Source: a virus
Virus record (IMG/VR): IMGVR_UViG_3300042197_004553
Coordinates: 15,094 to 79,093 of that record
Length of the DNA stretch: 64,000 bases
Direction: 5' to 3' (one strand)
The translations under genes were made by a program, and so were the position numbers. Below, one piece after another: positions 13,719 through 62,630 of the stretch. The notes below the pieces were generated by a model that saw only the letters and a list, made by a program, of their open reading frames with translations, ran no database searches and was not told the origin of the DNA. The first letter of the stretch is position 1; each line of letters begins with the position of its first letter.

Positions 13719-15338
13719 TCAGCAGTCGAGGATTTGGGTGGCGCTGGCGGAGGCGGGGGCGGCGGTGGCGTCACAGCCGGCTAAAATCGGTCCGCCTGTT
13801 TTTGTGCCGCGCAGTGTTCCTGTGATTGTAAAAGGTTGCTGCGGGCAAAAACACAGGCGAATGCGGGCATATGCCGACTGACCAGCCTGTACACGCCCGA
13901 GCGCGACCGAAAAAATCGGCCAGCCCCCGGTAATATTTAATTCTTCGCTCTGGTTGTCGCTGACGATCTGAGAATAATCCAAAAACACGCGACCGCTGCC
14001 GCCGCTGGGTGTGGTGGTAAATTCTGTCGTCAAAATGACGTTTTCAGCGCAGGTTTCGCAGTGATTGCAGTACATGAGCACAACGTCGACGCAGGGGCAT
14101 GGCTGCTGTGCGATAAACAGCCGCAATGGGCGCTGGTACCGACATTCCCGTTGAGCGTTCCAGCGCGCGATATTCTGCTCGTGCACGGCTTTGACAGCGG
14201 CAACCCGGTCGCCGATCGCGCGATACCGCTCTGCGACGACGTTTAGATATTTCGCTATGTCGACATAATCAACGCAGGCGCAGCACGGGCCGCAATCAGC
14301 GCCGAAAGCGATTTGATTGGCGGTCTGCGTCGGTTGTCCGTTGACATACAGCGCCGGCCGGCGGGTATACAGGCAGCCGTCGGCGTTCATAAAAATATTG
14401 CCGTTTTTGTCCGGACGTACGCCGTTGATGCTTTTAATCTCTTCGCCCGCTGCGTCGTCACAGATCGCGACTAGAATGTCGTCTCCGGGCGGGCAGACAT
14501 TGGTTGGACGATTCTCGGCGCAGTCTGGCGTGGGCGCCGCACATAGACCGAACTGCCCGCGACCGGAACCGGCGGCGGCTGACAACGCAATTTCGGTAAC
14601 GCGGCGACCGGCTTCCGCCGGCGTCAGCCCGAATCCGGGATTGATATCAAACCGGGTGGCGAGGTCGTTGACCGCGCCGATTTGCAGTTCGGTGTTAAAG
14701 CCGTTGACAAATGTAACTTTATTTTGAAACCACGGTGTCACACAGTTGCCGTTTTGAACGCGCATCGCCAGCACGCGCTTTGGAATTTTTTCAATCGCGC
14801 GCTCGTCGAGGATGGCGGCGCGCGGACAAAACGAGACCGGCCGCATCGGAACAGGATCGTTGTTGGTGTGCACGTCTTTGTATGTCACCGCGCGACACAC
14901 CGCCGCATTGGGTTTGGTCGTTTTCGCCCATTCGTACACGGTGTAATGCTCGCCCCACTCTGTAGCGACAAAGTCGTCTGCAGCCGTGCTGTCAAAAACA
15001 ACCCGATTGGCGGCGTCAATGACAACTAAATCGGCCGCATGGGTGGGCGCCGGAATGGCGACACCGGGCAGCGGCGCGGCGCCGTACGCAAACGCCGGTC
15101 CGGTCCCGAAACCATACAGCCAATACACGCGCAACGGATGCGCGACCCGCGGCACGTTTTGGTAATAACCCGGATCGTCATACGACAAGTAAAAATCAGC
15201 AAAGAGGTTTTCAACGTCGCCGACTGCTTCGGTAGGGGCGCTCCCGCCCGGGGCTACAAACGGATAATCCAGACCGCTCTGCGGCTGCACGACGCCGATT
15301 CCGCGCCCGGCGTGTGGGTCTGTGGATTGCCCCGGCAT
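13719..15338 (-). CDS. Cys-rich baseplate/fibre-associated protein (YPF-TING paralog 2)
   Basis: QSGLDYPF; IKSINGVRPDKNGN; CGPCCAC followed by a predicted coiled coil. Confidence 0.55.
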   Translation of the reverse strand: MPGQSTDPHAGRGIGVVQPQSGLDYPFVAPGGSAPTEAVGDVENLFADFYLSYDDPGYYQNVPRVAHPLRVYWLYGFGTGPAFAYGAAPLPGVAIPAPTHAADLVVIDAANRVVFDSTAADDFVATEWGEHYTVYEWAKTTKPNAAVCRAVTYKDVHTNNDPVPMRPVSFCPRAAILDERAIEKIPKRVLAMRVQNGNCVTPWFQNKVTFVNGFNTELQIGAVNDLATRFDINPGFGLTPAEAGRRVTEIALSAAAGSGRGQFGLCAAPTPDCAENRPTNVCPPGDDILVAICDDAAGEEIKSINGVRPDKNGNIFMNADGCLYTRRPALYVNGQPTQTANQIAFGADCGPCCACVDYVDIAKYLNVVAERYRAIGDRVAAVKAVHEQNIARWNAQRECRYQRPLRLFIAQQPCPCVDVVLMYCNHCETCAENVILTTEFTTTPSGGSGRVFLDYSQIVSDNQSEELNITGGWPIFSVALGRVQAGQSAYARIRLCFCPQQPFTITGTLRGTKTGGPILAGCDATAAPASASATQILDC

Positions 15339-40433: not shown

Positions 40434-40540
40434 GGCGTCCCCTGCGGTTTTTTATAGAGGCTGATGGTAGGAATCAGTTTAATTTTGTCGAGACGCAGTG
40501 TTACAGGCGGTGGCGCGGCGGGCGTGACTTTTTGGCTCAT
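40430..40540 (-). CDS. 36-aa microprotein MSQKVTPAAPPPVTLRLDKIKLIPTISLYKKPQGTP
   Basis: Fills the gap exactly, with ATGA start/stop overlaps at both ends. Confidence 0.55.
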   Translation of the reverse strand: MSQKVTPAAPPPVTLRLDKIKLIPTISLYKKPQGTP

Positions 40541-41781
40541 ATATCCCAAAATCCGTTGTCGTTAGCGGGTTTCACAATGCGCCCAGGCGGTTTGGCCGGC
40601 GGCCGAGCCGGTCCCCCCGCAAACACGACCGGCAGCGGCGCTTCGGGGGCGGTGACTGTCAACGCCCGAATATCTGGCCCAAACTCGCCCGGCTTTTCGT
40701 ACAGAATAACGTACTGCCCAGCATCCAGGCGAACAGATTGCGTCCATCGACCATTGACCCGAGTCGTCGTCTTCCCGACAGCCAAGTTGCGGTTGATCGG
40801 TAGGCCGTGTGCATCAAAATGCGCTTTGGTAAAGATGTAAATATCGGCGCCGGTGATCGGACAGCCGTCGGCCTGCGTATAAATAAGGTTGTCGGCGCCG
40901 CCATAATCCTGATCGACCACGACGGCCCCGCACCCGACGATTGGCAGTGTCGGGCCTTGTCGCGCCGGGGGTTCACCGCCGATTTCTAGCGCGTAGATCG
41001 GATTACTGAACGGCAACAAGCCCATTTTGACTTGGTAAACCACCGGGACGTTGCGGACTGCGGCCAGCACCTGAATGGTTTCGACCAGCCAGCGCTCGTC
41101 CGAGGCGCCGTTAATCCAAACGTCGCCTTTGTTCAACGCCGGAAACCCGATAACGCGCGCATTCACGTAGGCGTTTTCCCGGGTGGCGCCTTTTACATTG
41201 TTGTCAATATCTTCTTGAATCAATTGCGGCGACAGGTCCCAACACTGCATGGGCAGGGTCGGGTGGAAGCCGATTTCAAAACCGGTACCGCTGCACACCG
41301 GGCAATACGAGTCGGTCACCTCTTGGGTGAGCCCGTCGCGGCAGCGTTTGCAGGGTACGCCGTAGCGGAGCGGCTTGGCCAGATACCCGGGCGCCGAAAC
41401 CAGCCGGTGCCTCAACTTTTCTTTGCGGATGATCTCGCGCACCAGCAGCCAGTCTCGCTCCGGAAGTTCACCGAAACAGTTGGCGGCCTGCGAAACATAG
41501 GTGCCGACCGGCGTGGTGAGTTTCACGCGGTAGTGCGTCAGAATATCGTACCCGCCTTCGCGCCACGCGGGGTCGGCGGCAAAGTACGTGTTGGTGACCG
41601 GCGACCCGACGTTTTCCCAGTCAAACGAGTCGCGGACGCCAGAGCGCCCGAACTGCAGTTGAAAGGTGTAGGGCCCGGGGTCGTTAAATAGCCGCTCTAA
41701 CTGCCACCACACGCGGGTTACGCCGCGTACCATGTGGTCAACAGATACCCGGCGGAACGGGAAAATGCGAGATTGGCTCAT
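40537..41781 (-). CDS. putative neck/head-closure protein with zinc finger
   Basis: CKRC...CPVCSGTG; ALNKGDVWI...RWLVETI head-closure-like segment; synteny. Confidence 0.5.
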   Translation of the reverse strand: MSQSRIFPFRRVSVDHMVRGVTRVWWQLERLFNDPGPYTFQLQFGRSGVRDSFDWENVGSPVTNTYFAADPAWREGGYDILTHYRVKLTTPVGTYVSQAANCFGELPERDWLLVREIIRKEKLRHRLVSAPGYLAKPLRYGVPCKRCRDGLTQEVTDSYCPVCSGTGFEIGFHPTLPMQCWDLSPQLIQEDIDNNVKGATRENAYVNARVIGFPALNKGDVWINGASDERWLVETIQVLAAVRNVPVVYQVKMGLLPFSNPIYALEIGGEPPARQGPTLPIVGCGAVVVDQDYGGADNLIYTQADGCPITGADIYIFTKAHFDAHGLPINRNLAVGKTTTRVNGRWTQSVRLDAGQYVILYEKPGEFGPDIRALTVTAPEAPLPVVFAGGPARPPAKPPGRIVKPANDNGFWDI

Positions 41782-41788
41782 AAACCAA

Positions 41789-41795
41789 AGTATAC
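41789..41795 (-). promoter_or_regulatory. putative -10 element GTATACT (class B)
   Basis: Between the terminator and ATG 41781, 7 nt from the start codon, which suggests a leaderless transcript. Confidence 0.45.
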
Positions 41796-41811
41796 CTGAC
41801 CGCTGATAGCT

Positions 41812-41855
41812 AAAAAAAAGGCCGGGGAGAGTTCATGACTCTCTCCCCGGCCTTT
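41812..41855 (-). terminator. intrinsic terminator closing the AAA-VWA-RNA unit
   Basis: Minus strand AAAGGCCGGGGAGAG...CTCTCCCCGGCCTTT, 15-bp stem running into a T8 tract. Confidence 0.85.
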
Positions 41856-42465
41856 CCCCCAATCACCACCTTGCGGTGGGCACACTGATTCAGGGCTCGT
41901 TGTTCTCCGGTCGAGGCGGCTACACCCACGCCAACAAACGCGATGTTTGGCGGCTGCTTTTGGCAGGAATGGGGCACAACGAGAAAGCGTACCTGTGTGG
42001 GGTATGAAACTCCCGCGTTTTGCGACCAGCGCTTAACGCAAAAGTCACACAGGCGTGACAGTAGTTTTAATGGCGCCAAAGTTTACGACGGACAGGGCCC
42101 CACACCCGACTTGGCTGTCCTTCTACAACTCTGGTCTCACACTGCAAGATAACTACCTGAACCGGCGTTTCACTGGCTGGCGCATATAGGGCCAACCGGA
42201 CGTCCCAGAAAGTAGTCAGAGCCCACTAACGGTGGTGTTACCAAATCACCGCGAGGCTGGCGTAACTGACAAAGTCACACCTTTGTGTCCAAGGGCTCTT
42301 CCTCGAAAGCCTTGATTCTGTTCGAACTGCCGCGCCTTTGCGACAATTCGCCGGGAATGCTGACAGAACCGACAGCGTTCCCGGCGTGGCTCCTTCGAGA
42401 ACCACTCGTATAAATTAAACCTAGTTAGGGAAACGGCATACGTAGCCTCCTTTCTGGCGCCATTA
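41856..42465 (-). ncRNA. candidate large structured non-coding RNA (~600-650 nt), family unassigned
   Basis: No credible ORF in an otherwise gene-dense genome; more than 10 stems, several with G-U pairs on the minus strand; a GCAA tetraloop; an 11-bp long-range inverted repeat. Confidence 0.65.
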
Positions 42466-43890
42466 CGTAGCGAGGGCGATCTTGAAACCTTTCAGCATGG
42501 TCGGCAGATTGGTACATCCTTGGACCATGCTGAGTTTTGACAACAATTCCGGGTTCCAATCCGGAATCATGCCCGATTCGACCGTCTCTGGCACCGCGTA
42601 CTTTCCCGAAAAGTAGTTGTGCAGCCAGATCGCGCGGGTCACGCTTTTCAGTCCAATCACCTTGCGGTATTGCTCCGTGGCGTCGTGGTCGCCGATGAAG
42701 ACGACAACACGAACCCTATAACAACTCTGTCCGCCACAGACCTGATCGAACAGGCGTTCCACCTGTCCGGGGTCTGTGGCCACTGGCTTTCCGTTAAACC
42801 ACGGGATGTAGTTCTCCGTCGAGTCCACCTCGCCGTTGCTGTGGGGAAACACCAGCACGTCGGAGCCAGAAACTCCGGCGTAGCCCGCCGCGTTAGCAAG
42901 ATCGCAGGCTATCTGGGCCTGCGCCTCGCAACTCGGCGATACGTCGGGAAGAAACAGCACGCACGGGCGGCCCGTCATACTGTCTTCCTTGAGAGCGTTG
43001 GGCAGCGGCCGGCGGACAACCATTCGCTGCACCAACTTTCGGGCGCTCAACACGGGGATTGGCGCAAAGTTTTCACCCGCGCTGCCTCCCCGGTCGACGA
43101 GCCGATTAATCAGGTCGGCCACCTGTTGTCGCAGTTTTGGCGGAACCCGTTGCAGCCGCCCATGGGCTCCTGCAATCGTTTTCCGCGCCACAAGAGACGG
43201 CGCCGACGCCTGCGCCACGCGGTTGTGCGACGCTTTCCGCCGGGCCATCTGGAGATTCCGTTTTGCCGCACTAACCGAAGCACTGCCGGAGGACTGAGGG
43301 GCTTGTTTGGCGCGGGCAAGGGCGTCGCGATACGCCTGTTGCGCGGCCTTAAGCGCCTGCTGCTCGGGACTTGGCTGTGGTTTAGGGGGAACGGGTTGTG
43401 GCTGGTTCGTCTCCTGCCCAGACGCAGGACCGGTCGTCTGCGTTTGGGTCGGCTGCGCGTCGTCCGGCGACTGGGGCTGCGACCCCTGTTGCTGGCCGGC
43501 GGGCTGTGACGAATTGTTACTACTGCCGCCCGGCTGCTGTTGCTGCTGGGACTGGCCCTGACCGCTCCCGCCGCCACCGGAATTCGGCTGTTGCCGTTGC
43601 CGATTTTGTCGTTCGCGGTCCCAATTGATCGCCGACGTGACGGGCACATCAGGCCCGTACCGTCGCGCCCACGTGTCGACTCTGGACTGCACGTCGACGA
43701 CGCGGCCGGTGGTAGCCTCGATGTTACCGCGTTTCACCGCGGCCCGCTCGATCGCGTATTCCGGCTCGTTCGCGACATGGCAGGCGACTTTGCTTAGCGT
43801 CTTAGGATACGCGGAGCCGCCGAAACTCTCGCCGCAATTGCGGCGCGAGACGCTAAGCATTTTCTGCAGTTCTCGCACCGTAAGGGCCAC
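42463..43890 (-). CDS. VWA (MIDAS)-domain protein with Gln/Pro-rich linker
   Basis: VLFLPDVSPSC (DxSxS) and VVVFIGDHD; AAAGGAG Shine-Dalgarno; follows the AAA+ gene. Confidence 0.7.
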   Translation of the reverse strand: MALTVRELQKMLSVSRRNCGESFGGSAYPKTLSKVACHVANEPEYAIERAAVKRGNIEATTGRVVDVQSRVDTWARRYGPDVPVTSAINWDRERQNRQRQQPNSGGGGSGQGQSQQQQQPGGSSNNSSQPAGQQQGSQPQSPDDAQPTQTQTTGPASGQETNQPQPVPPKPQPSPEQQALKAAQQAYRDALARAKQAPQSSGSASVSAAKRNLQMARRKASHNRVAQASAPSLVARKTIAGAHGRLQRVPPKLRQQVADLINRLVDRGGSAGENFAPIPVLSARKLVQRMVVRRPLPNALKEDSMTGRPCVLFLPDVSPSCEAQAQIACDLANAAGYAGVSGSDVLVFPHSNGEVDSTENYIPWFNGKPVATDPGQVERLFDQVCGGQSCYRVRVVVFIGDHDATEQYRKVIGLKSVTRAIWLHNYFSGKYAVPETVESGMIPDWNPELLSKLSMVQGCTNLPTMLKGFKIALAT

Positions 43891-43906
43891 GAGTTTCTCC
43901 TTTCTT

Positions 43907-44734
43907 CTAGTGTTTCCGCTTAAACTCGCCGTACAGCACGGCGCCGGGAGAAGAAATCTCCCGCTCGATCGCTCGGCGGTCCTTCTCGTCCTTGACGAGG
44001 AAGGCGTCGATCAGCGACTCAGTGTCCTCGACTGAGGTCACCAAATCGCGCGCATGCAGGAGTTCGCGCAACTCCTGCAGGCTGGGCTTGCTTTCGCCCT
44101 TGGTGCGGACGGCGTTGGCCATCTTCACCGCGAGCCGGCACGCGCCGCCGGGCGCGCCCGTGTTCTTGCGGAGCACGTCCACCTCGACGTTCTCCGGCAA
44201 GAACTCCATCGTCACACGAAAGCAGCGGCGCTTTACTGCCTCCGGGATGTCGCCCTCCTCGTTTGCCGTGAGGACAACAAACATCCGCTTGAGGTCCGCT
44301 TGATGCATGTGGTGCCGCGCATCAGGCACCCGGCCATGCTGGAGAAAGTCCAGAATGAGCGGGTAGAACCGGCTGCCGGCCTTTTCCACCTCGTCCAGCG
44401 TCACGACGACGTCGTGGTGCTTTGTAGCTTTGACAGCCCGAAGCAACTGTCCGTCCATGTACGCCTCGTCGGCGTGAGTAACGCCGACCGCGACCTTGCC
44501 GATGTCCACACCCTGATTGACCTCCTCATTGGTCAACCACGGGTGGCAGGGGATGAAGAACTGCTTTGCACCCCTGCCGCGGGCGAAACAGTCGGCAAAG
44601 AATGTCTTGCCCGTGCCGGGCGAGCCGACCAGCAAAACCGCCCGCATCGTCGCCGTGATCAGCGACAGCCAGCGGGCCGCCAGCGACTCACCGCGGCGAG
44701 CGTAGTAATCGGGCAGCAATGTGTTCGTCGACAT
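43907..44734 (-). CDS. MoxR-like AAA+ ATPase
   Basis: Walker A GSPGTGKT, Walker B VTLDEVEK, sensor VVLTANE, EAVKRRC. Confidence 0.85.
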   Translation of the reverse strand: MSTNTLLPDYYARRGESLAARWLSLITATMRAVLLVGSPGTGKTFFADCFARGRGAKQFFIPCHPWLTNEEVNQGVDIGKVAVGVTHADEAYMDGQLLRAVKATKHHDVVVTLDEVEKAGSRFYPLILDFLQHGRVPDARHHMHQADLKRMFVVLTANEEGDIPEAVKRRCFRVTMEFLPENVEVDVLRKNTGAPGGACRLAVKMANAVRTKGESKPSLQELRELLHARDLVTSVEDTESLIDAFLVKDEKDRRAIEREISSPGAVLYGEFKRKH

Positions 44735-44757
44735 GAAACCTCCGCAGGTGTTAATGT

Positions 44758-45245
44758 TTAATTCTCGCTCGGCACCGCGCGGTGCAGAGTGCCGGCTTTC
44801 TGGGCCGCGTACGCCTTGACCTTGGCCTTAGCCGCCTCGGCCGCCGCCTCCTCCTCTCGACGCTCGCGCTCGATGCGCTCGCCATCTTCAAACAAGGCGG
44901 TGGCGACCGCCTTGAAGTCGATCTCGTCCATGAAGAGTCGGCAGATGTTCTCCACAAACGTCATGCTTGTCATCATGTTGTGGACGGCTTCTTCTTCGCC
45001 GTGCTCGTCCGCAATCTTGACCAGCGCCATGATTTCGTTAAGCACCGTCGCGATAGAAGTGCCGATAATGCCGATCGCCCAGAATGTCATGCCACCGATT
45101 GCAGCAGTCCTGTGCTCTTCGTCCCACTCGGTCTTGCCGAGCGCGACTAATTTCTCTTTGGACATCAGTACGGGTGCGAAGACCACCCCAGTTCTTCCGC
45201 TTTTTTGCGGAAGTTCTCCAGCGTCTGCTGTGTCGCGTCGTTCAC
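44758..45245 (-). CDS. hypothetical protein, apparently split by a one-base frameshift near 45186-45189
   Basis: AAAGGAGG plus GTG 45245 opens a 26-codon ORF ending in a TGATG overlap with the ORF from 45165; one extra G would fuse them. Confidence 0.55.
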
Positions 45246-45322
45246 AAAAACCTCCTTTGCATAAAAGAGCCGGGGCGAAACGCCGCGCCGGCGGGGCCGC
45301 ACAGATAAACGGCACCAATGAA

Positions 45323-45349
45323 TATGCCCGTGTTTGCGGCAAAATTTAG
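45323..45349 (-). promoter_or_regulatory. putative phage promoter CTAAAT-N15-GGCATA (class A)
   Basis: Same hexamers and spacing as 5399-5425. Confidence 0.6.
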
Positions 45350-45473: not shown

Positions 45474-46472
45474 CTAGTAGCGAATGCGGATGGCGTCGGT
45501 GTAGGCGCTGTACTTGTAATTCGAACTCACCTCGCCGTAGCAACTTTCGAGGTTAATGCTGGCTTTCGTGGCGCGCACCCACTCCCGATACGCCTGCCAC
45601 CGCGCCTGCCCTGCCCGCTCGTAACTGGCTTCTTTGTTCTGGTCGTTGACCGCGACACCGCCAGCCGAATACTCCAATTGGTTGCGGCGAAATTGCTCGG
45701 CAACCATCATAAATAAATTGGCACAAACGCCTTCAAGCCAGTGATATCGGAACGGAAAATTTTGTGTAGTGTAGGTCGGGCTCAGCGGCGGCGGAATTTC
45801 GTTCCAATACTGCACCGGTCGGGCGATCGCTAGCGCGATCTCAGCGTCGTCAAACATCAAGTTTTCCAGCAGATAACTCTCCCCCGGCGCCGAATCGCGC
45901 AGGTGCAGTCGGACTTCCGCGATGCTGGGCGGTCCGCCGGGTCCGTTATTGCTCCCGGTATCGAATGTGCTCCGGTTGATGATCAAATAAAACGTGTTAG
46001 AAAATATCACACAAGGCTGTGCGGCCGCCTCCGCCGGGATATTGACCAGCGCCATTTCCGCGTAGTAAACGCCCGGGACGCCGACCATGGCCTGCGTGAG
46101 CGCGGCTTCTACGGTGCCGTCGGCGGCGGTGACAACCGCTGCGTTGACCTGCGTGACCGGATTCTGGTTCCCCAGCGCAATCTGCTCTTTGAGCCGCAGC
46201 ACGACTTTAAACAGTGCGGCGTTATTGCAGCCGGTCAGGCTCACCGGGACGCCGTCCTTGTCGTGCATCTGCCAGCGGATCGTGGCGCACTGGCCCTGCG
46301 TAATCGAGATTGCTCGCATCCGGGACAGGAGCGGCTGCCCGTTCTGCGCCGAAACGGGCGCGCTCAGCACGTTCTGACCCGCGCAGGGGACCGGGTTCAG
46401 GACTTGCGGCGTATTGCTGTTGTCGCAACAGGAGACCAGCGGGTGAGACGTTGGCGTGGCGATGACGGCCAT
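45474..46472 (-). CDS. putative head-tail adaptor (neck) with N-terminal BppU-like domain
   Basis: ITQGQCATIRWQMHDKDGVPVSLTG (BppU-like); EVRLHLRD...FDDAEIALAI and YSAGGVAVND (adaptor-like). Confidence 0.55.
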   Translation of the reverse strand: MAVIATPTSHPLVSCCDNSNTPQVLNPVPCAGQNVLSAPVSAQNGQPLLSRMRAISITQGQCATIRWQMHDKDGVPVSLTGCNNAALFKVVLRLKEQIALGNQNPVTQVNAAVVTAADGTVEAALTQAMVGVPGVYYAEMALVNIPAEAAAQPCVIFSNTFYLIINRSTFDTGSNNGPGGPPSIAEVRLHLRDSAPGESYLLENLMFDDAEIALAIARPVQYWNEIPPPLSPTYTTQNFPFRYHWLEGVCANLFMMVAEQFRRNQLEYSAGGVAVNDQNKEASYERAGQARWQAYREWVRATKASINLESCYGEVSSNYKYSAYTDAIRIRY

Positions 46473-59498: not shown

Positions 59499-62400
59499 TT
59501 ACAGTGTTTTTGGCAAGGAGCCTAGTGAGACTTGCGGGGTCACTTGCGGGGCACTTGCGGGGTACGTGGGGGGTACTTGGGGGGTCGGCTCTGGTTTCCA
59601 CCCGCTCGTCGCGCCTGAAAGTCCGAATTGTTCGCCACGCGCGAGCGCCGGCACGTAACTGCTGCCGGCCGTGTCGCTGGTCAGGCCCCGGTGCACACTG
59701 TTTAAAAATCCTCGCTCTTGATACGACCCCAGCATGCGGGTCATCCAGTCGGGGTCGTTGGCGATGTTGGCCATGCCGCGCACCATCTCCGGCTCAAACG
59801 GCGGCGGTTCTTTATGGGCCTGCACGTTGGTGATGCCGTACTTCTGCAGGTTGTCGGCCACACTTTTCGTGATCTTGGTGCCGACCGAGTAGTGCAAGAC
59901 CGGTGTTTCGAGGTAGTGATTTGTTAATGTCTTGGGTGCGCCCGTCACGCCGCCTGTCCGGGGCTGCCAGTTCCGCTCCAGCATGGAATAGGGCACGACG
60001 TCATTCGGCGCATAGTCGCCGTATTCGTCCGTCAGCCGAACATGGTTAATTAATCCGCGGGCTACCAGTTCAATGTTCCGGCGGTGGGCGGTGATGCCGC
60101 TGTTACCCAGCACCTGCCGCATGGCCTGCGTGAAGTACCGCCGGCCTTCGCCCACGCCCTTGTGCTTTACGATCTCGGCCGGATTGGGCATGCCGTCGGA
60201 CAGCACGTCACCGGCTTCCAGCGTGTCCCCTTTTTTCACGACGACATCGCGGTCGGCGGGCACGTAGTGATCTTCGCCGTCGACCTGCACATAAAACCCG
60301 CCTTGGGCCGCCGGGCGAATCTCCTGCACCCGGCCGTCGCGCTGCGCATGGGTCGCGCCGTCGGGATATTTTTTCGGTACCTGCACCAGCGCGTTGATGG
60401 CTTTAAACCCGGAGATCGATTTCGCCCCGCCCACACCGCCGGAATTGCTTACGATGAGTCCGTTTGCCAATACAAACAAATGATCATCGTTATCTACTTC
60501 AATGTCATACGTCGGTAATTGACCAATTAATTCGGGTTTTTGCCGAGGATAACGCGTAAACGGCCGAGGGGACTCAACGCGCCAATTTCGTAATAATTCG
60601 TCGAATGTGCGGCGTTTCACGCCATACAACGGAATTAGCGCATAAAACCGCCGAACGCTTTCTTCAGAACTGATGTTGATGCTATACAGTGTGCGCTTAC
60701 GCGACGAATTATTGGCGTAAGGTCCGGTCGAATAAATACCGAAACGTTGCGATAACAATTGTTGCATCTGCGCAATCAATTCTCGCGACGTGGAACCGAA
60801 GTTCAGATGTGGTCTGGATATGTGCGCGTTGATGCCCGGAAGAAATACGCTGCCATCGGCGACAAAATATCCGCCAATAAGTTGCGCCACAGAAGCGTTG
60901 TCCCAATTCCAAACTTCTTCGGGCAAAATTTTTTCGTGAGCGTATTTACCGTACATGCCGCGAGTTTCTAGCCACAAACGCACCGGATTTCGCGTGCCGG
61001 CCGTCATTTGCCCGGTTTTACTGTCGCGTCGCGTGTAGTAATCGTCGGCGCGCATGGCGACTTTGTAATAACCGGGGTGCCCCTTTAATTTTGTCAGTTT
61101 AAGGTTCAACGGCGCAATTAACGGTTGAATTTCTTCAACCAGTGACTGGTCAAAACAACTGAAATTAACGGATTGAACGGCGTGCGTATAGCAACCGTCA
61201 CCCAACAATAAACCGATCAACAACGCAAAAGGTTCGTGAATTAAATCAGCGGAAGAATCGTCAAATCCTCGCGGCATAGTGGCCGACAATTTACCGGCTG
61301 AGGTGCCAACCGGCAACACTTGCGGCGTCCAATTGTAAATCTCAGCGGATGAATTGTTGACGCGGCGAAACATCAAAACTTTGTGGTCTAACGTGCTAAT
61401 TAATTCAACATTTTCGCTCGCGCGCCTGTACGGAATACGAAACACAGTTCGCGCACATTCTCGCAACCCGTTGTCATACGTGCGCACAACGCGAGACGGA
61501 AATGTACGCGCGTTTTTATCGGCACCCAGAACTACATCCCCGGCACGAATGTCTTCGATACGTTTTACAGACCAATCAGCCATTCGCACCAATGTTCCGA
61601 CGGCTAAACAGTGCTTGGACGACAACTGCGACTGGGAGACTGGCTCGGACAGCGCCTGCGCGGCGGCAATGCCCACATAATCTCCTACAGGCGGCAGCCG
61701 GCCCTTTTCGCGATACCCGACGTCCTTGGCGTACACACCGCCGTCGTCCGGACCGCCCACGAGCGGACTGCGCACGACGAGGTCCTGCACGCCCATCTGC
61801 TTTAAGTCGCGCAGAATCTTCGGCGTGAGCACGGTGTTGCGCTTGTACGGGCCGACGGGACGGGCCAAGAGCGCACCCTCGTTGTCAGGATCGTCGACAT
61901 CGGTCGGCAGGCCGCGGTTGGCCGCATCGGCTTGGCGCTCGTCGTCATCGTCGTCGTCGGCGGTGACGAGCAGCCGGTGCGCCATCTGCGTCAACTGCTT
62001 GCCGTAAAACCCGGCGTCCGCCGTGGCGGTTTTGACGTCAATAACGCCCTTGCGGGTGCCGAACGACGCCGCGAAGTACTCAGCCGGCGTCAAGCCGCGG
62101 CCGTAGGACCGCACCACCGGGAGCGGAATGGGCTGGTCCCGATGGTCGACGTACTGCAGGTCGGCTCCGATGAGCGAGTTCAGCGAAAACTTGTTGCCGC
62201 CCGCGCCGGAGATCACCTGATGCACCAGCGGATTGTTGGCCGTGCGCGCTTCGTTGTACACATCCTCGACCAATTGCTGCTGGGTCTCAGCGGCCAACTT
62301 TAAAATTCGCAGGTTCCGTTCTTTGTCGGAGAGACTTTGGTCGGCCAGAATCTGCCGCAACTGTTTGCGAACCTTGACCTCCGCGTGCCGGCTGGCCGTT

Positions 62401-62630
62401 GTCGGCTGGATGTCGCGCAGGCCCATCGACATGCCGCCCGTGGTATACGCCACGTCGCGGGAGATGTCGTGAATCTTTTTCATGACCTCGCGATACCGAT
62501 CGGGGTATTTCTTGGCCAGTTCCGTTGACAGCGCGCCCATATTCTTCTTGTCGAGCACGCGGTCGTAGTTCCGCATGTCGTCAGGCAGGGCTTCGTTGAT
62601 GAGCAGTTGGCCAAGCGTTGTTTTTAACAC
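59499..62630 (-). CDS. RNA polymerase beta' C-terminal fragment (bridge helix, trigger loop), intein-containing
   Basis: GLTPAEYFAASFGTRKGVIDVKTATADAGFYGKQL (bridge helix), YVGIAAAQALSEPVSQSQLSSKH/SGG (trigger loop), HRRNIELVARGL. Confidence 0.9.
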   Translation of the reverse strand: MLKTTLGQLLINEALPDDMRNYDRVLDKKNMGALSTELAKKYPDRYREVMKKIHDISRDVAYTTGGMSMGLRDIQPTTASRHAEVKVRKQLRQILADQSLSDKERNLRILKLAAETQQQLVEDVYNEARTANNPLVHQVISGAGGNKFSLNSLIGADLQYVDHRDQPIPLPVVRSYGRGLTPAEYFAASFGTRKGVIDVKTATADAGFYGKQLTQMAHRLLVTADDDDDDERQADAANRGLPTDVDDPDNEGALLARPVGPYKRNTVLTPKILRDLKQMGVQDLVVRSPLVGGPDDGGVYAKDVGYREKGRLPPVGDYVGIAAAQALSEPVSQSQLSSKHCLAVGTLVRMADWSVKRIEDIRAGDVVLGADKNARTFPSRVVRTYDNGLRECARTVFRIPYRRASENVELISTLDHKVLMFRRVNNSSAEIYNWTPQVLPVGTSAGKLSATMPRGFDDSSADLIHEPFALLIGLLLGDGCYTHAVQSVNFSCFDQSLVEEIQPLIAPLNLKLTKLKGHPGYYKVAMRADDYYTRRDSKTGQMTAGTRNPVRLWLETRGMYGKYAHEKILPEEVWNWDNASVAQLIGGYFVADGSVFLPGINAHISRPHLNFGSTSRELIAQMQQLLSQRFGIYSTGPYANNSSRKRTLYSINISSEESVRRFYALIPLYGVKRRTFDELLRNWRVESPRPFTRYPRQKPELIGQLPTYDIEVDNDDHLFVLANGLIVSNSGGVGGAKSISGFKAINALVQVPKKYPDGATHAQRDGRVQEIRPAAQGGFYVQVDGEDHYVPADRDVVVKKGDTLEAGDVLSDGMPNPAEIVKHKGVGEGRRYFTQAMRQVLGNSGITAHRRNIELVARGLINHVRLTDEYGDYAPNDVVPYSMLERNWQPRTGGVTGAPKTLTNHYLETPVLHYSVGTKITKSVADNLQKYGITNVQAHKEPPPFEPEMVRGMANIANDPDWMTRMLGSYQERGFLNSVHRGLTSDTAGSSYVPALARGEQFGLSGATSGWKPEPTPQVPPTYPASAPQVTPQVSLGSLPKTL
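60444..61610 (-). mobile_element. intein with LAGLIDADG homing endonuclease (389 aa)
   Basis: Starts CLAVGTLVRMAD, ends TYDIEV...HLFVLANGLIVSN followed by Ser; LLIGLLLGDG and LIGGYFVADG motifs; visibly more AT-rich than the flanks. Confidence 0.9.

Follow-up and report, generated by a model that had tools for sequence, protein, structure and literature searches.

A candidate family of large structured RNAs linked to a MoxR–VWA gene pair in uncultured jumbo phages

Introduction

Bacteria and phages encode few large, intricately folded RNAs of unknown function, examples being OLE, GOLLD, ROOL and raiA. Recent cryo-electron microscopy has revealed that several such RNAs form RNA-only multimers, and OLE RNA works with dedicated proteins encoded beside it (oapA). 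Here we describe a further large RNA element, encoded on the minus strand of a 64,000-nt stretch of viral DNA (the window; positions 15,094 to 79,093 of IMG/VR record IMGVR_UViG_3300042197_004553). It is a conserved, structured, non-coding element that is strictly linked to a gene pair for a MoxR-type AAA+ protein and a VWA/MIDAS protein. An earlier note on this DNA had proposed a novel non-coding RNA (ncRNA) of ~600 nt at this place, without assigning it to a family.

GOLLD, ROOL and OLE self-assemble without protein (10.1101/2024.12.08.627333). In the same study, Kretsch et al. supported intermolecular kissing loops in OLE and GOLLD by covariation from one palindrome to another, the argument made for GOLLD L21a and OLE L9.3 (10.1101/2024.12.08.627333). 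In phages, Y-like RNAs that have a 5'-3' stem and carry a CGAA motif are encoded next to Ro60 genes (PMC12135203). Viral MoxR–VWA pairs (jumbo phage group 2.2; ATV tail development) are proposed as virion-assembly aids (PMC7824862). Against this background, large ornate phage RNAs without an assigned function are an established kind. As far as these sources show, the family described here, its linkage to MoxR–VWA and its head of a Shine-Dalgarno (SD) sequence and mini open reading frame (mini-ORF) are new.

Results

A conserved and structured minus-strand element

The window was taken from a 79-kb IMG/VR contig with an estimated completeness of 39% and a G+C content of ~59%. Nearly all genes of the window lie on the minus strand, and their products are virion proteins and pieces of RNA polymerase. 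The gap at 41782-42462 (~680 bases) is the largest in the window without a long ORF, as the earlier note had claimed. The coordinates of all features are collected in Table 1.

The VWA protein encoded upstream of the gap has 93 relatives in a large protein collection. Scans of IMG/VR and JGI metagenomes located homologous loci with the order AAA, VWA, a gap of ~560-710 nt, a 414-aa gene and a 236-aa gene; the metagenome scan yielded L134 and L135 only. The gaps were homologous by nhmmer, with 8 distinct contigs besides the window, which gives nine distinct versions (window, L003, L012, L004, L077, L134, L006, L007 and L010). Every RNA copy found sits directly 3' of the VWA/MIDAS gene and on the same strand. 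Although full-length VWA identities among the IMG/VR loci are only 36-48%, the RNA has several blocks of 10-30 nt that hardly vary. INPHARED phages gave no DNA or protein match and GTDB genomes no match, while further IMG/VR pattern scans returned chance matches or already-known loci only.

The minus strand of 41812-42465 folded with a minimum free energy (MFE) of -279 kcal/mol, compared with -237 ± 5.7 kcal/mol for shuffles preserving dinucleotides (z -7.4), and 0 of 20 shuffles were as good. The plus strand reached z -3.25 by the same procedure. Read on the minus strand, the consensus helices contain 63 G-U cells against 16 A-C cells, which identifies the minus strand as the RNA strand. The U-run and the SD/mini-ORF also favour this strand, and at 41877 an A-U pair is replaced by G-U in close relatives (X5 and X6 contigs). 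All six frames of the gap contain 5-10 stops each, and no open or conserved reading frame was found among the homologues. Translated similarity jumps between frames and strands, the pattern expected of nucleotide-level conservation with indels that are not multiples of three.

Covariation was assessed on a plain MAFFT alignment, made from sequence and not fitted to structure. RNAalifold gave 80 pairs, 47 with compensatory changes; one spurious helix was removed and 73 pairs were counted. Double changes were seen at 47 of these 73 pairs, compared with 25.4 in shuffles and 14-21 with slid partners. Paired cells made up 87.5% (72.0% in shuffles, 36-48% with slid partners) and the covariation score was 0.488 (0.217 and 0.166 or less, respectively). 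None of 500 shuffles reached the observed value on any of the three measures. Compensatory substitutions and the lack of a conserved ORF, both found here, are what is generally asked of a structured ncRNA.

Relation to known RNA families

No match at gathering threshold to the 4227 families of Rfam 15 was obtained over the 64 kb. In a relaxed search of 41700-42600 only the terminator hairpin was matched, by miRNA and sRNA models well below threshold, and seven homologous loci gave no match at E <= 0.05, including to GOLLD, ROOL, OLE and raiA. A literature search found no description of this RNA. We regard the family as new because Rfam 15 holds no match, INPHARED and GTDB no relative and the literature searched no description. 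Mimicry of tRNA or tmRNA was considered and rejected, with no tRNA or tmRNA found in the window by ARAGORN and no Rfam tmRNA match.

The earlier note's call of a novel RNA outside assignable families, on the minus strand, therefore holds. Each of the checks it had set out agreed: the Rfam searches at gathering and relaxed E-values (window and seven loci) were negative, the fold lay far from shuffles, homologues shared no coding frame, and 47 of 73 pairs carried compensatory changes. The resemblance it drew to ROOL and GOLLD is borne out for the kind of RNA (phage-borne, large, multi-helix, with signs of self-association) and fails for family membership.

Architecture of the RNA

The architecture was derived by folding segments between conserved anchors, homologue by homologue. 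The long-range helix P1 closes domain I (~390 nt), which contains P2-P9 together with a pseudoknot (PK1) between the P2 loop and J3/4. Domain II comprises P10, a nearly invariant three-way junction of P11-P13, P14 and the terminal hairpin. A cognate P1 is present in most homologues, its sequence differing by lineage, and cognate duplexes average -22.3 kcal/mol compared with -17.3 kcal/mol for non-cognate ones. PK1 complementarity is found in 6 homologues in 4 covarying versions (UUCUGU/ACAGAA, UUCCGU/ACGGAA, GCUUCGU/ACGAAGC and CUCCGA/UCGGAG), with cognate duplexes averaging -11.2 and non-cognate ones -7.7 kcal/mol. The internal loop of P7 (GACG/AACG) is formed by GGGACGUC at 42199-42206 and GAAACGCC at 42164-42171; the P7 tip is usually GNRA, and the P14 tip is GNRA or a heptaloop across homologues. 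The GC-rich 15-bp stem and U8 at 41812-41855 form a predicted intrinsic terminator.

For P6, P7 and P9, in the centre of domain I (~42090-42290), folding the window's RNA by itself gives pairings other than those of the comparative consensus. The structure of divergent members (P2-P3 region of L004/L077; L007; L010) is partly resolved. Loop-loop pairing of P13 with P4 and pairing of the P5 loop with J4/5 were dropped owing to inconsistent support. A role as CsrA sponge was likewise dropped, as loop GGA motifs were not conserved between homologues by inspection rather than formal test.

The helices listed in the earlier note are present in the minus-strand fold: GUGGUUCU/GGAGCCAC, GCCGGGAA.GCUG/CAGC.UUCCCGGC, GAAUUGUCGC/GCGGCAGUUC, GGUUGGC/GCCAGCC, CCAGAGU/ACUUUGG enclosing GGACAG/CUGUCC, GCCUGUGUG/CACACAGGU enclosing the UUUUGCG helix, CUCGUUGU/ACAACGAG and CCACC-GCAA-GGUGG. 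The list was thus correct in what it named and missed the long-range P1, the pseudoknot and the mini-ORF.

Table 1. Coordinates of the RNA, its parts and the neighbouring genes in the window
Feature	Position	Strand	Remarks
Whole structured RNA	41812..42465	minus	~654 nt, from VWA stop codon to end of U-run; fold z -7.4, homologues, covariation
P1, 5' strand	42453..42465	minus	UAAUGGCGCCAGA; first three bases are the VWA stop codon; 13-bp helix in MFE
Extended SD	42446..42454	minus	GAAAGGAGG; in all 9 sequences, weakened in L134 and L006
Mini-ORF	42425..42439	minus	AUG CCG UUU CCC UAA (MPFP); SD-start-stop arrangement in 9/9
Window-specific hairpin	42386..42405	minus	GUGGUUCU/GGAGCCAC; in MFE, missing from most homologues
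P2 long hairpin	42350..42385	minus	Loop 42363-42370 GGUUCUGU is the PK1 5' strand
P3 hairpin	42324..42349	minus	Segment folds and MFE
J3/4, PK1 3' strand	42314..42321	minus	ACAGAAUC; complementary to P2 loop
P4 hairpin	42294..42311	minus	Covariation helix 1, 3/6 pairs compensatory
Conserved junction and 9-bp P5 hairpin	42259..42290	minus	GGACACAAAG; conserved blocks, segment folds, covariation
P6 hairpin	42230..42251	minus	Covariation helix 4
P7	42162..42208	minus	Near-invariant 4x4 internal loop, window-specific extension; covariation helices 5, 6
P9	42076..42134	minus	Internal loop GUAG/GUAAA; covariation helices 7 and 8, 9/11 pairs compensatory
P1, 3' strand	42068..42080	minus	UUUGGCGCCAUUA; abuts and overlaps P9, ~390 nt from 5' strand
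P10 hairpin	41991..42054	minus	Extended in window; covariation helix 9, 7/8 pairs compensatory
Three-way junction	41896..41983	minus	P11 (CUCGUUGU/ACAACGAG), variable P12, P13; most conserved block
P14	41856..41895	minus	GNRA (GCAA) tip; covariation helix 13
Terminal 15-bp hairpin	41817..41855	minus	9-nt loop AG-UCAUGA-A; palindrome 41833-41838; U-run 41812-41819
Terminal loop, window			AG-UCAUGA-A
Terminal loop, L003			CA-UCGCGA
Terminal loop, L012			AA-GCUAGC
Terminal loop, L004			UU-GCUAGC
Terminal loop, L134			UU-GCUAGC
Terminal loop, L077			AUG-GCUAGC
Virion-block gene	40537-41781	minus	414 aa, highly conserved; downstream side of gap
VWA/MIDAS protein gene	42463-43890	minus	475 aa; VWA/MIDAS fold in C-terminal half; upstream side of gap
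MoxR-type AAA+ gene	43907-44734	minus	Upstream of VWA gene; AAA_5 match 1.6e-13
Small gene, first of cassette	44758-45342	minus	Upstream of MoxR
Accessory cassette, protein genes	42463..45342	minus	Small gene, MoxR-type AAA+, VWA/MIDAS

Linkage of the RNA to the MoxR–VWA cassette

Using the 414-aa gene as probe, 43 IMG/VR loci were obtained. AAA, VWA and RNA occur together in 11 of the 43, all of them already-known contigs, and all three are absent from 30, where the 332-aa gene is followed directly by the 414-aa gene or by unrelated small ORFs. Locus L302, whose contig breaks off within the VWA gene, has VWA and RNA; L307 begins at the 414-aa gene, with the upstream sequence outside the contig. 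A covariance model (R1) found the three-way junction block only in cassette-bearing loci. Among genomes lacking the cassette, R1 matched nothing in G001-G004 (97-100% complete), and the VWA profile nothing in G001-G005 or G009. G006 (100% complete), used as control, had exactly one match to each, and VWA is present in G007 and G008. From this joint presence and absence across loci and genomes, the small gene, MoxR, VWA and RNA are gained or lost as one optional unit. The cassette including the RNA spans ~3.5 kb in that order. As the clade can do without it, the cassette more likely has an accessory than a core role, in assembly or host takeover.

An insertion hot spot of the virion block lies where the 332-aa gene (45474-46472) meets the 414-aa gene (40537-41781). 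In related ~200 kb phages these two genes lie 5-60 nt apart or are split by 0.6-1.4 kb of small-ORF cargo; loci with alternative cargo include L319, L321, L334 and L339 (among L309-L343).

A palindromic loop at the terminal hairpin

In 6 of the 9 sequences the terminal loop consists of 2-3 bases, a 6-nt palindrome and 0-1 base. The nine folds contain 62 hairpin loops of at least 6 nt; a 6-nt palindrome occurs in 8 of these, 6 of which are the terminal loop, against a background of 1.9% palindromic 6-mers overall. A 4755-bp environmental contig, ~88% identical to the window, carries exactly the paired changes 41834 C>T and 41837 G>A, so that its hexamer reads UUAUAA in place of UCAUGA. The same contig changes a G-C pair of the stem to A-U (41820 G>A and 41852 C>T) and the GNRA tip GCAA to GUAA (41873 G>A). 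Across the hexamer variants all three mirror pairs therefore covary, including the central adjacent pair, which is unable to pair within one loop. The palindrome axis is offset from the stem axis in the window and L004 (hand-checked), so the palindrome is not a continuation of the stem.

UCAUGA, UUAUAA, UCGCGA and GCUAGC are all self-complementary, as a kissing loop would require; L006 and L007 have no such palindrome. We infer that two RNA copies join through a symmetric kissing loop at the terminal hairpin, by the covariation reasoning introduced above for OLE and GOLLD.

The terminal loops of L006 and L010 share the non-palindromic UCAUAGUA. In L010, the most divergent homologue, the loop of an additional P7 hairpin (GAGUACUA, L010:5740-5760) contains the palindrome AGUACU, and this loop is also complementary over 6 nt to the terminal loop (UAGUAC, L010:6125-6140). 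This complementarity may provide an alternative intra- or intermolecular kissing contact. L007 shows neither the shared loop nor such a P7 palindrome.

A Shine-Dalgarno sequence and mini-ORF at the 5' end

The SD follows immediately after the P1 5' strand in all nine sequences. Its prevailing form, GAAAGGAGG, matches the 3' end of the usual 16S rRNA perfectly over 9 nt. The 64 kb contain just two perfect copies of AAAGGAGG, both of them within the cassette. A mini-ORF is likewise found in 9/9: a start codon follows the SD, in most at a distance of 6 nt, and the stop comes after 3-5 codons. The encoded peptide is MPFP in four sequences, with synonymous Pro codons (CCG/CCC/CCA and CCC/CCU), and MNFT, MFT, MGTQ, MHWPR or MTWP in the others. 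From this arrangement we infer loading of a ribosome at the SD/mini-ORF.

Genes of the cassette and its surroundings

In the window a MoxR/AAA_5-type AAA+ gene is followed by one for a MIDAS (DxSxS) protein of VWA fold, the make-up of a MoxR–VWA pair. The MIDAS motif (D316-x-S318-x-S320) is invariant in the VWA protein alignment. The nearest structural matches of the VWA domain are weak and comprise Rea1-MIDAS, NorD and the Ro60 VWA domain. The best in PDB is Ro60 of Thermus phage phiLo (Z 8.6, root-mean-square deviation 3.7, 140 residues), and this likeness is confined to residues 247-475, the VWA domain. ESM Atlas neighbours of the protein are DUF58, CoxE and VWA. No Pfam family, TROVE (HEAT-repeat ring) included, was detected in the VWA protein even at E 10, and a profile search of PDB sequences returned no Ro60. 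PADLOC, PHROGs and NCBIfam gave nothing informative on the small gene or the VWA protein.

An N-terminal domain of the VWA protein (residues 1-105, window 43576-43890) is predicted confidently, with a predicted local distance difference test score (pLDDT) of 89. Its best PDB match reached only Z 3.5 and Foldseek returned none; the idea of an RNA-binding fold was dropped, as the confident model matched no known fold. Most homologues carry in this domain a CxCxxC motif that the window's protein lacks owing to a deletion. The second perfect AAAGGAGG of the window (45251-45258, minus) lies ~85 nt inside the listed 194-aa ORF of the first cassette gene, whose true start is therefore probably near 45243. 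The ESM Atlas form of its protein is shorter still.

The 414-aa protein is 60-71% identical to six aligned homologues and 51-72% identical across the 43 related phage loci, with no Pfam, PHROG or NCBIfam match. Its invariant Cys pairs (CxxC ... CxxC) suggest a candidate zinc-binding virion protein. Between the U-run of the RNA and this gene (window 41781-41812, minus), AGCUAUCAGCGG, ~6 nt and TATAAT/TATACT are kept in all homologues. The end of the motif and the ATG of the 414-aa gene are 7 nt apart, and this gene lacks an SD of its own; the motif looks like a promoter yielding a leaderless or near-leaderless mRNA. 'TAGCTATCAG' was rejected as a general phage promoter, having a single exact copy in the window and being locus-specific. 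In L012 (5640-6165) and L134 (1682-2596) the RNA is separated from the 414-aa gene by an extra gene of ~130 aa, with two flanking copies of the T-run/AGCTAT promoter-like motif.

A 1043-aa ORF (59499-62630) has ~25-28% identity to the annotated RNA polymerase beta subunit of Salmonella phage Arash and is distantly similar to genes of ~187 kb Vibrio phages. These phages are the nearest cultured relatives for any gene tested.

Discussion

A proposed partnership with the MoxR–VWA pair

We favour, at a little better than even odds (roughly 0.55), that the element represents a new family of large (~560-710 nt) structured ncRNAs working with the MoxR–VWA pair of its cassette. The RNA occupies the 3' end of a mobile accessory cassette, which lies between two conserved virion genes in a clade of uncultured freshwater jumbo phages of ~200 kb. 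It would be read from the strand of the cassette genes, from the stop codon of VWA or a point shortly after it to the hairpin with its U-run, and is likely made as the 3' part of the cassette transcript. Kissing-loop dimers and perhaps larger assemblies may form, and the folded RNA may have a ribosome loaded or parked at its 5' end. Because the RNA and the pair are strictly co-inherited, the RNA could be a stable partner, scaffold or client of MoxR–VWA remodelling, and the cassette would give an optional, not essential, function in virion assembly or host takeover.

Several observations weigh against this proposal. Co-inheritance in a cassette is no proof of physical or functional interaction, and an RNA-binding domain was not recognised in the VWA protein. 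The covariation statistics count related sequences, with nine distinct sequences only, and no public RNA run was found containing the sequence. For the dimer, the palindromic terminal loop is missing in L006 and L007, and the palindrome of L010 sits in a different loop. The terminal hairpin also doubles as terminator in the window and L003, which partly explains its conservation.

Alternative explanations

The foremost rival, which we consider unlikely, is an RNA-only assembly of ROOL/GOLLD type (dimer, cage or scaffold) for which MoxR and VWA are merely cassette neighbours. It would suit a phage-borne, large, multi-domain RNA with a pseudoknot and a covarying palindromic loop, and the protein-free self-assembly of GOLLD, ROOL and OLE provides the precedent. 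The linkage to MoxR–VWA, however, is strict, with fixed order in every case, and the RNA has neither a link to tRNA islands nor similarity to the ROOL, GOLLD and OLE families. Slightly less probable is a purely cis-acting 3' untranslated region of the moxR-vwa mRNA, giving nuclease protection or tuned VWA translation or termination with no role in trans. The RNA does begin on the VWA stop codon, which P1 includes, and a terminator ends the unit. Known 5' stabilisers include SD-like elements and stalled ribosomes, so that an SD-bound ribosome plus a 3' hairpin would be a classic stabilising pair. Yet an RNA of ~600 nt that has a pseudoknot, near-invariant internal loops and no fewer than 14 covarying helices goes far beyond the needs of protection, and RNA blocks of 30 nt stay almost invariant where the VWA proteins are only 36-48% identical.

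A Ro60/Y-RNA-like ribonucleoprotein, formed by binding of the VWA protein to the RNA and serving as a complex to capture host RNA-decay enzymes or misfolded RNAs, appears improbable. The structural match to phiLo Ro60 speaks for it, as do a closing stem and a conserved CGAAC junction reminiscent of the phage Y-like RNAs. Set against these, the defining TROVE/HEAT ring was absent from both searches, a Z of 8.6 is typical of models without a true match, the CGAAC is engaged in PK1, and Y RNAs are several times smaller than the present RNA. We give marginally less credence to the minigene as active product, a highly expressed 3-5-codon ORF behind a perfect SD that would tie up ribosomes or peptidyl-tRNAs, as lambda bar minigenes do, with the structure merely stabilising it. 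The SD, spacer and ORF length are conserved, and minigenes of 3-8 codons sequester tRNA (PMC2490762). The peptides and codons vary (MPFP, MTWP, MHWPR, MNFT, MFT, MGTQ), however, so no single tRNA is targeted across lineages, and 600 nt of conserved structure would be left unexplained. That the gap is a non-functional decayed gene or chance GC-rich spacer can practically be dismissed: a G+C of ~59% raises background folding, but the z of -7.4 was obtained with dinucleotide-preserving shuffles, compensatory changes extend across contigs whose flanking VWA proteins have diverged to 36-48% identity, and no frame signal was seen.

Implications

Compared with other RNAs of its kind, the one proposed here to work with MoxR–VWA is unusually tractable. 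Its dedicated neighbours, MoxR and VWA, suggest a partner, the covarying palindromic loop predicts dimerisation, and a ribosome-loading minigene is predicted at the 5' end. Some phages of the clade carry the cassette and others do not, which provides natural isogenic comparisons. A viral MoxR–VWA pair accompanied by an RNA also bears on the targets of these widespread, poorly understood chaperone pairs. As a long shot, the RNA might be a self-assembling particle (dimer or cage) that docks host ribosomes through its SD and minigene and is built or remodelled by its own MoxR–VWA. This would make it a phage counterpart of the Rea1/midasin AAA+-MIDAS remodelling of pre-ribosomal ribonucleoproteins, and the first viral AAA+/VWA system with an RNA client.

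Comparison with known systems

With the Ro60–Y RNA system (phage phiLo Ro60-Yrl) the locus shares a phage VWA-domain gene beside a structured RNA, and the VWA fold finds its best PDB match there. It differs in having no TROVE ring, an RNA several times larger and of other architecture, and a paired MoxR ATPase. The terminal hairpin resembles the HIV-1 dimerisation initiation site, whose layout is that of an 8-9-nt loop on a long stem with 2 flanking bases, a 6-nt self-complementary core and 0-1 base, and whose variants likewise remain self-complementary. The molecule and its biology are unrelated, however, and the present hairpin also serves as, or neighbours, an intrinsic terminator.

Viral MoxR–VWA chaperone pairs are matched by the order of an AAA+ MoxR gene and a VWA/MIDAS partner, with fitting likeness to AAA_5, Rea1-MIDAS and NorD. 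The novel N-terminal domain of the VWA protein sets the present pair apart, and an associated RNA is not mentioned in PMC7824862 as searched here. OLE RNA (RF01071) is comparable in size (~600 nt) and dimerises via a palindromic loop (10.1101/2024.12.08.627333). It has a link to bS21, and its dedicated neighbouring proteins can be likened to MoxR and VWA. In contrast to OLE, the present RNA has other partners, gives no model match and is phage-borne rather than from Bacillota.

Similar in kind are GOLLD (RF01998) and ROOL (RF03087), which are also phage-encoded RNAs of 550-800 nt with many helices and pseudoknots; the function of all three is unknown. Signs of homo-oligomerisation via symmetric kissing loops are common to them, here as signs in the sequence. 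The present RNA differs in that neither the window nor the seven homologous loci match their covariance models. Whereas GOLLD and ROOL often lie beside tRNA islands, it is flanked by a VWA and a virion gene, with no tRNA in the window. It resides in a MoxR–VWA cassette within the virion block and begins with an SD and mini-ORF.

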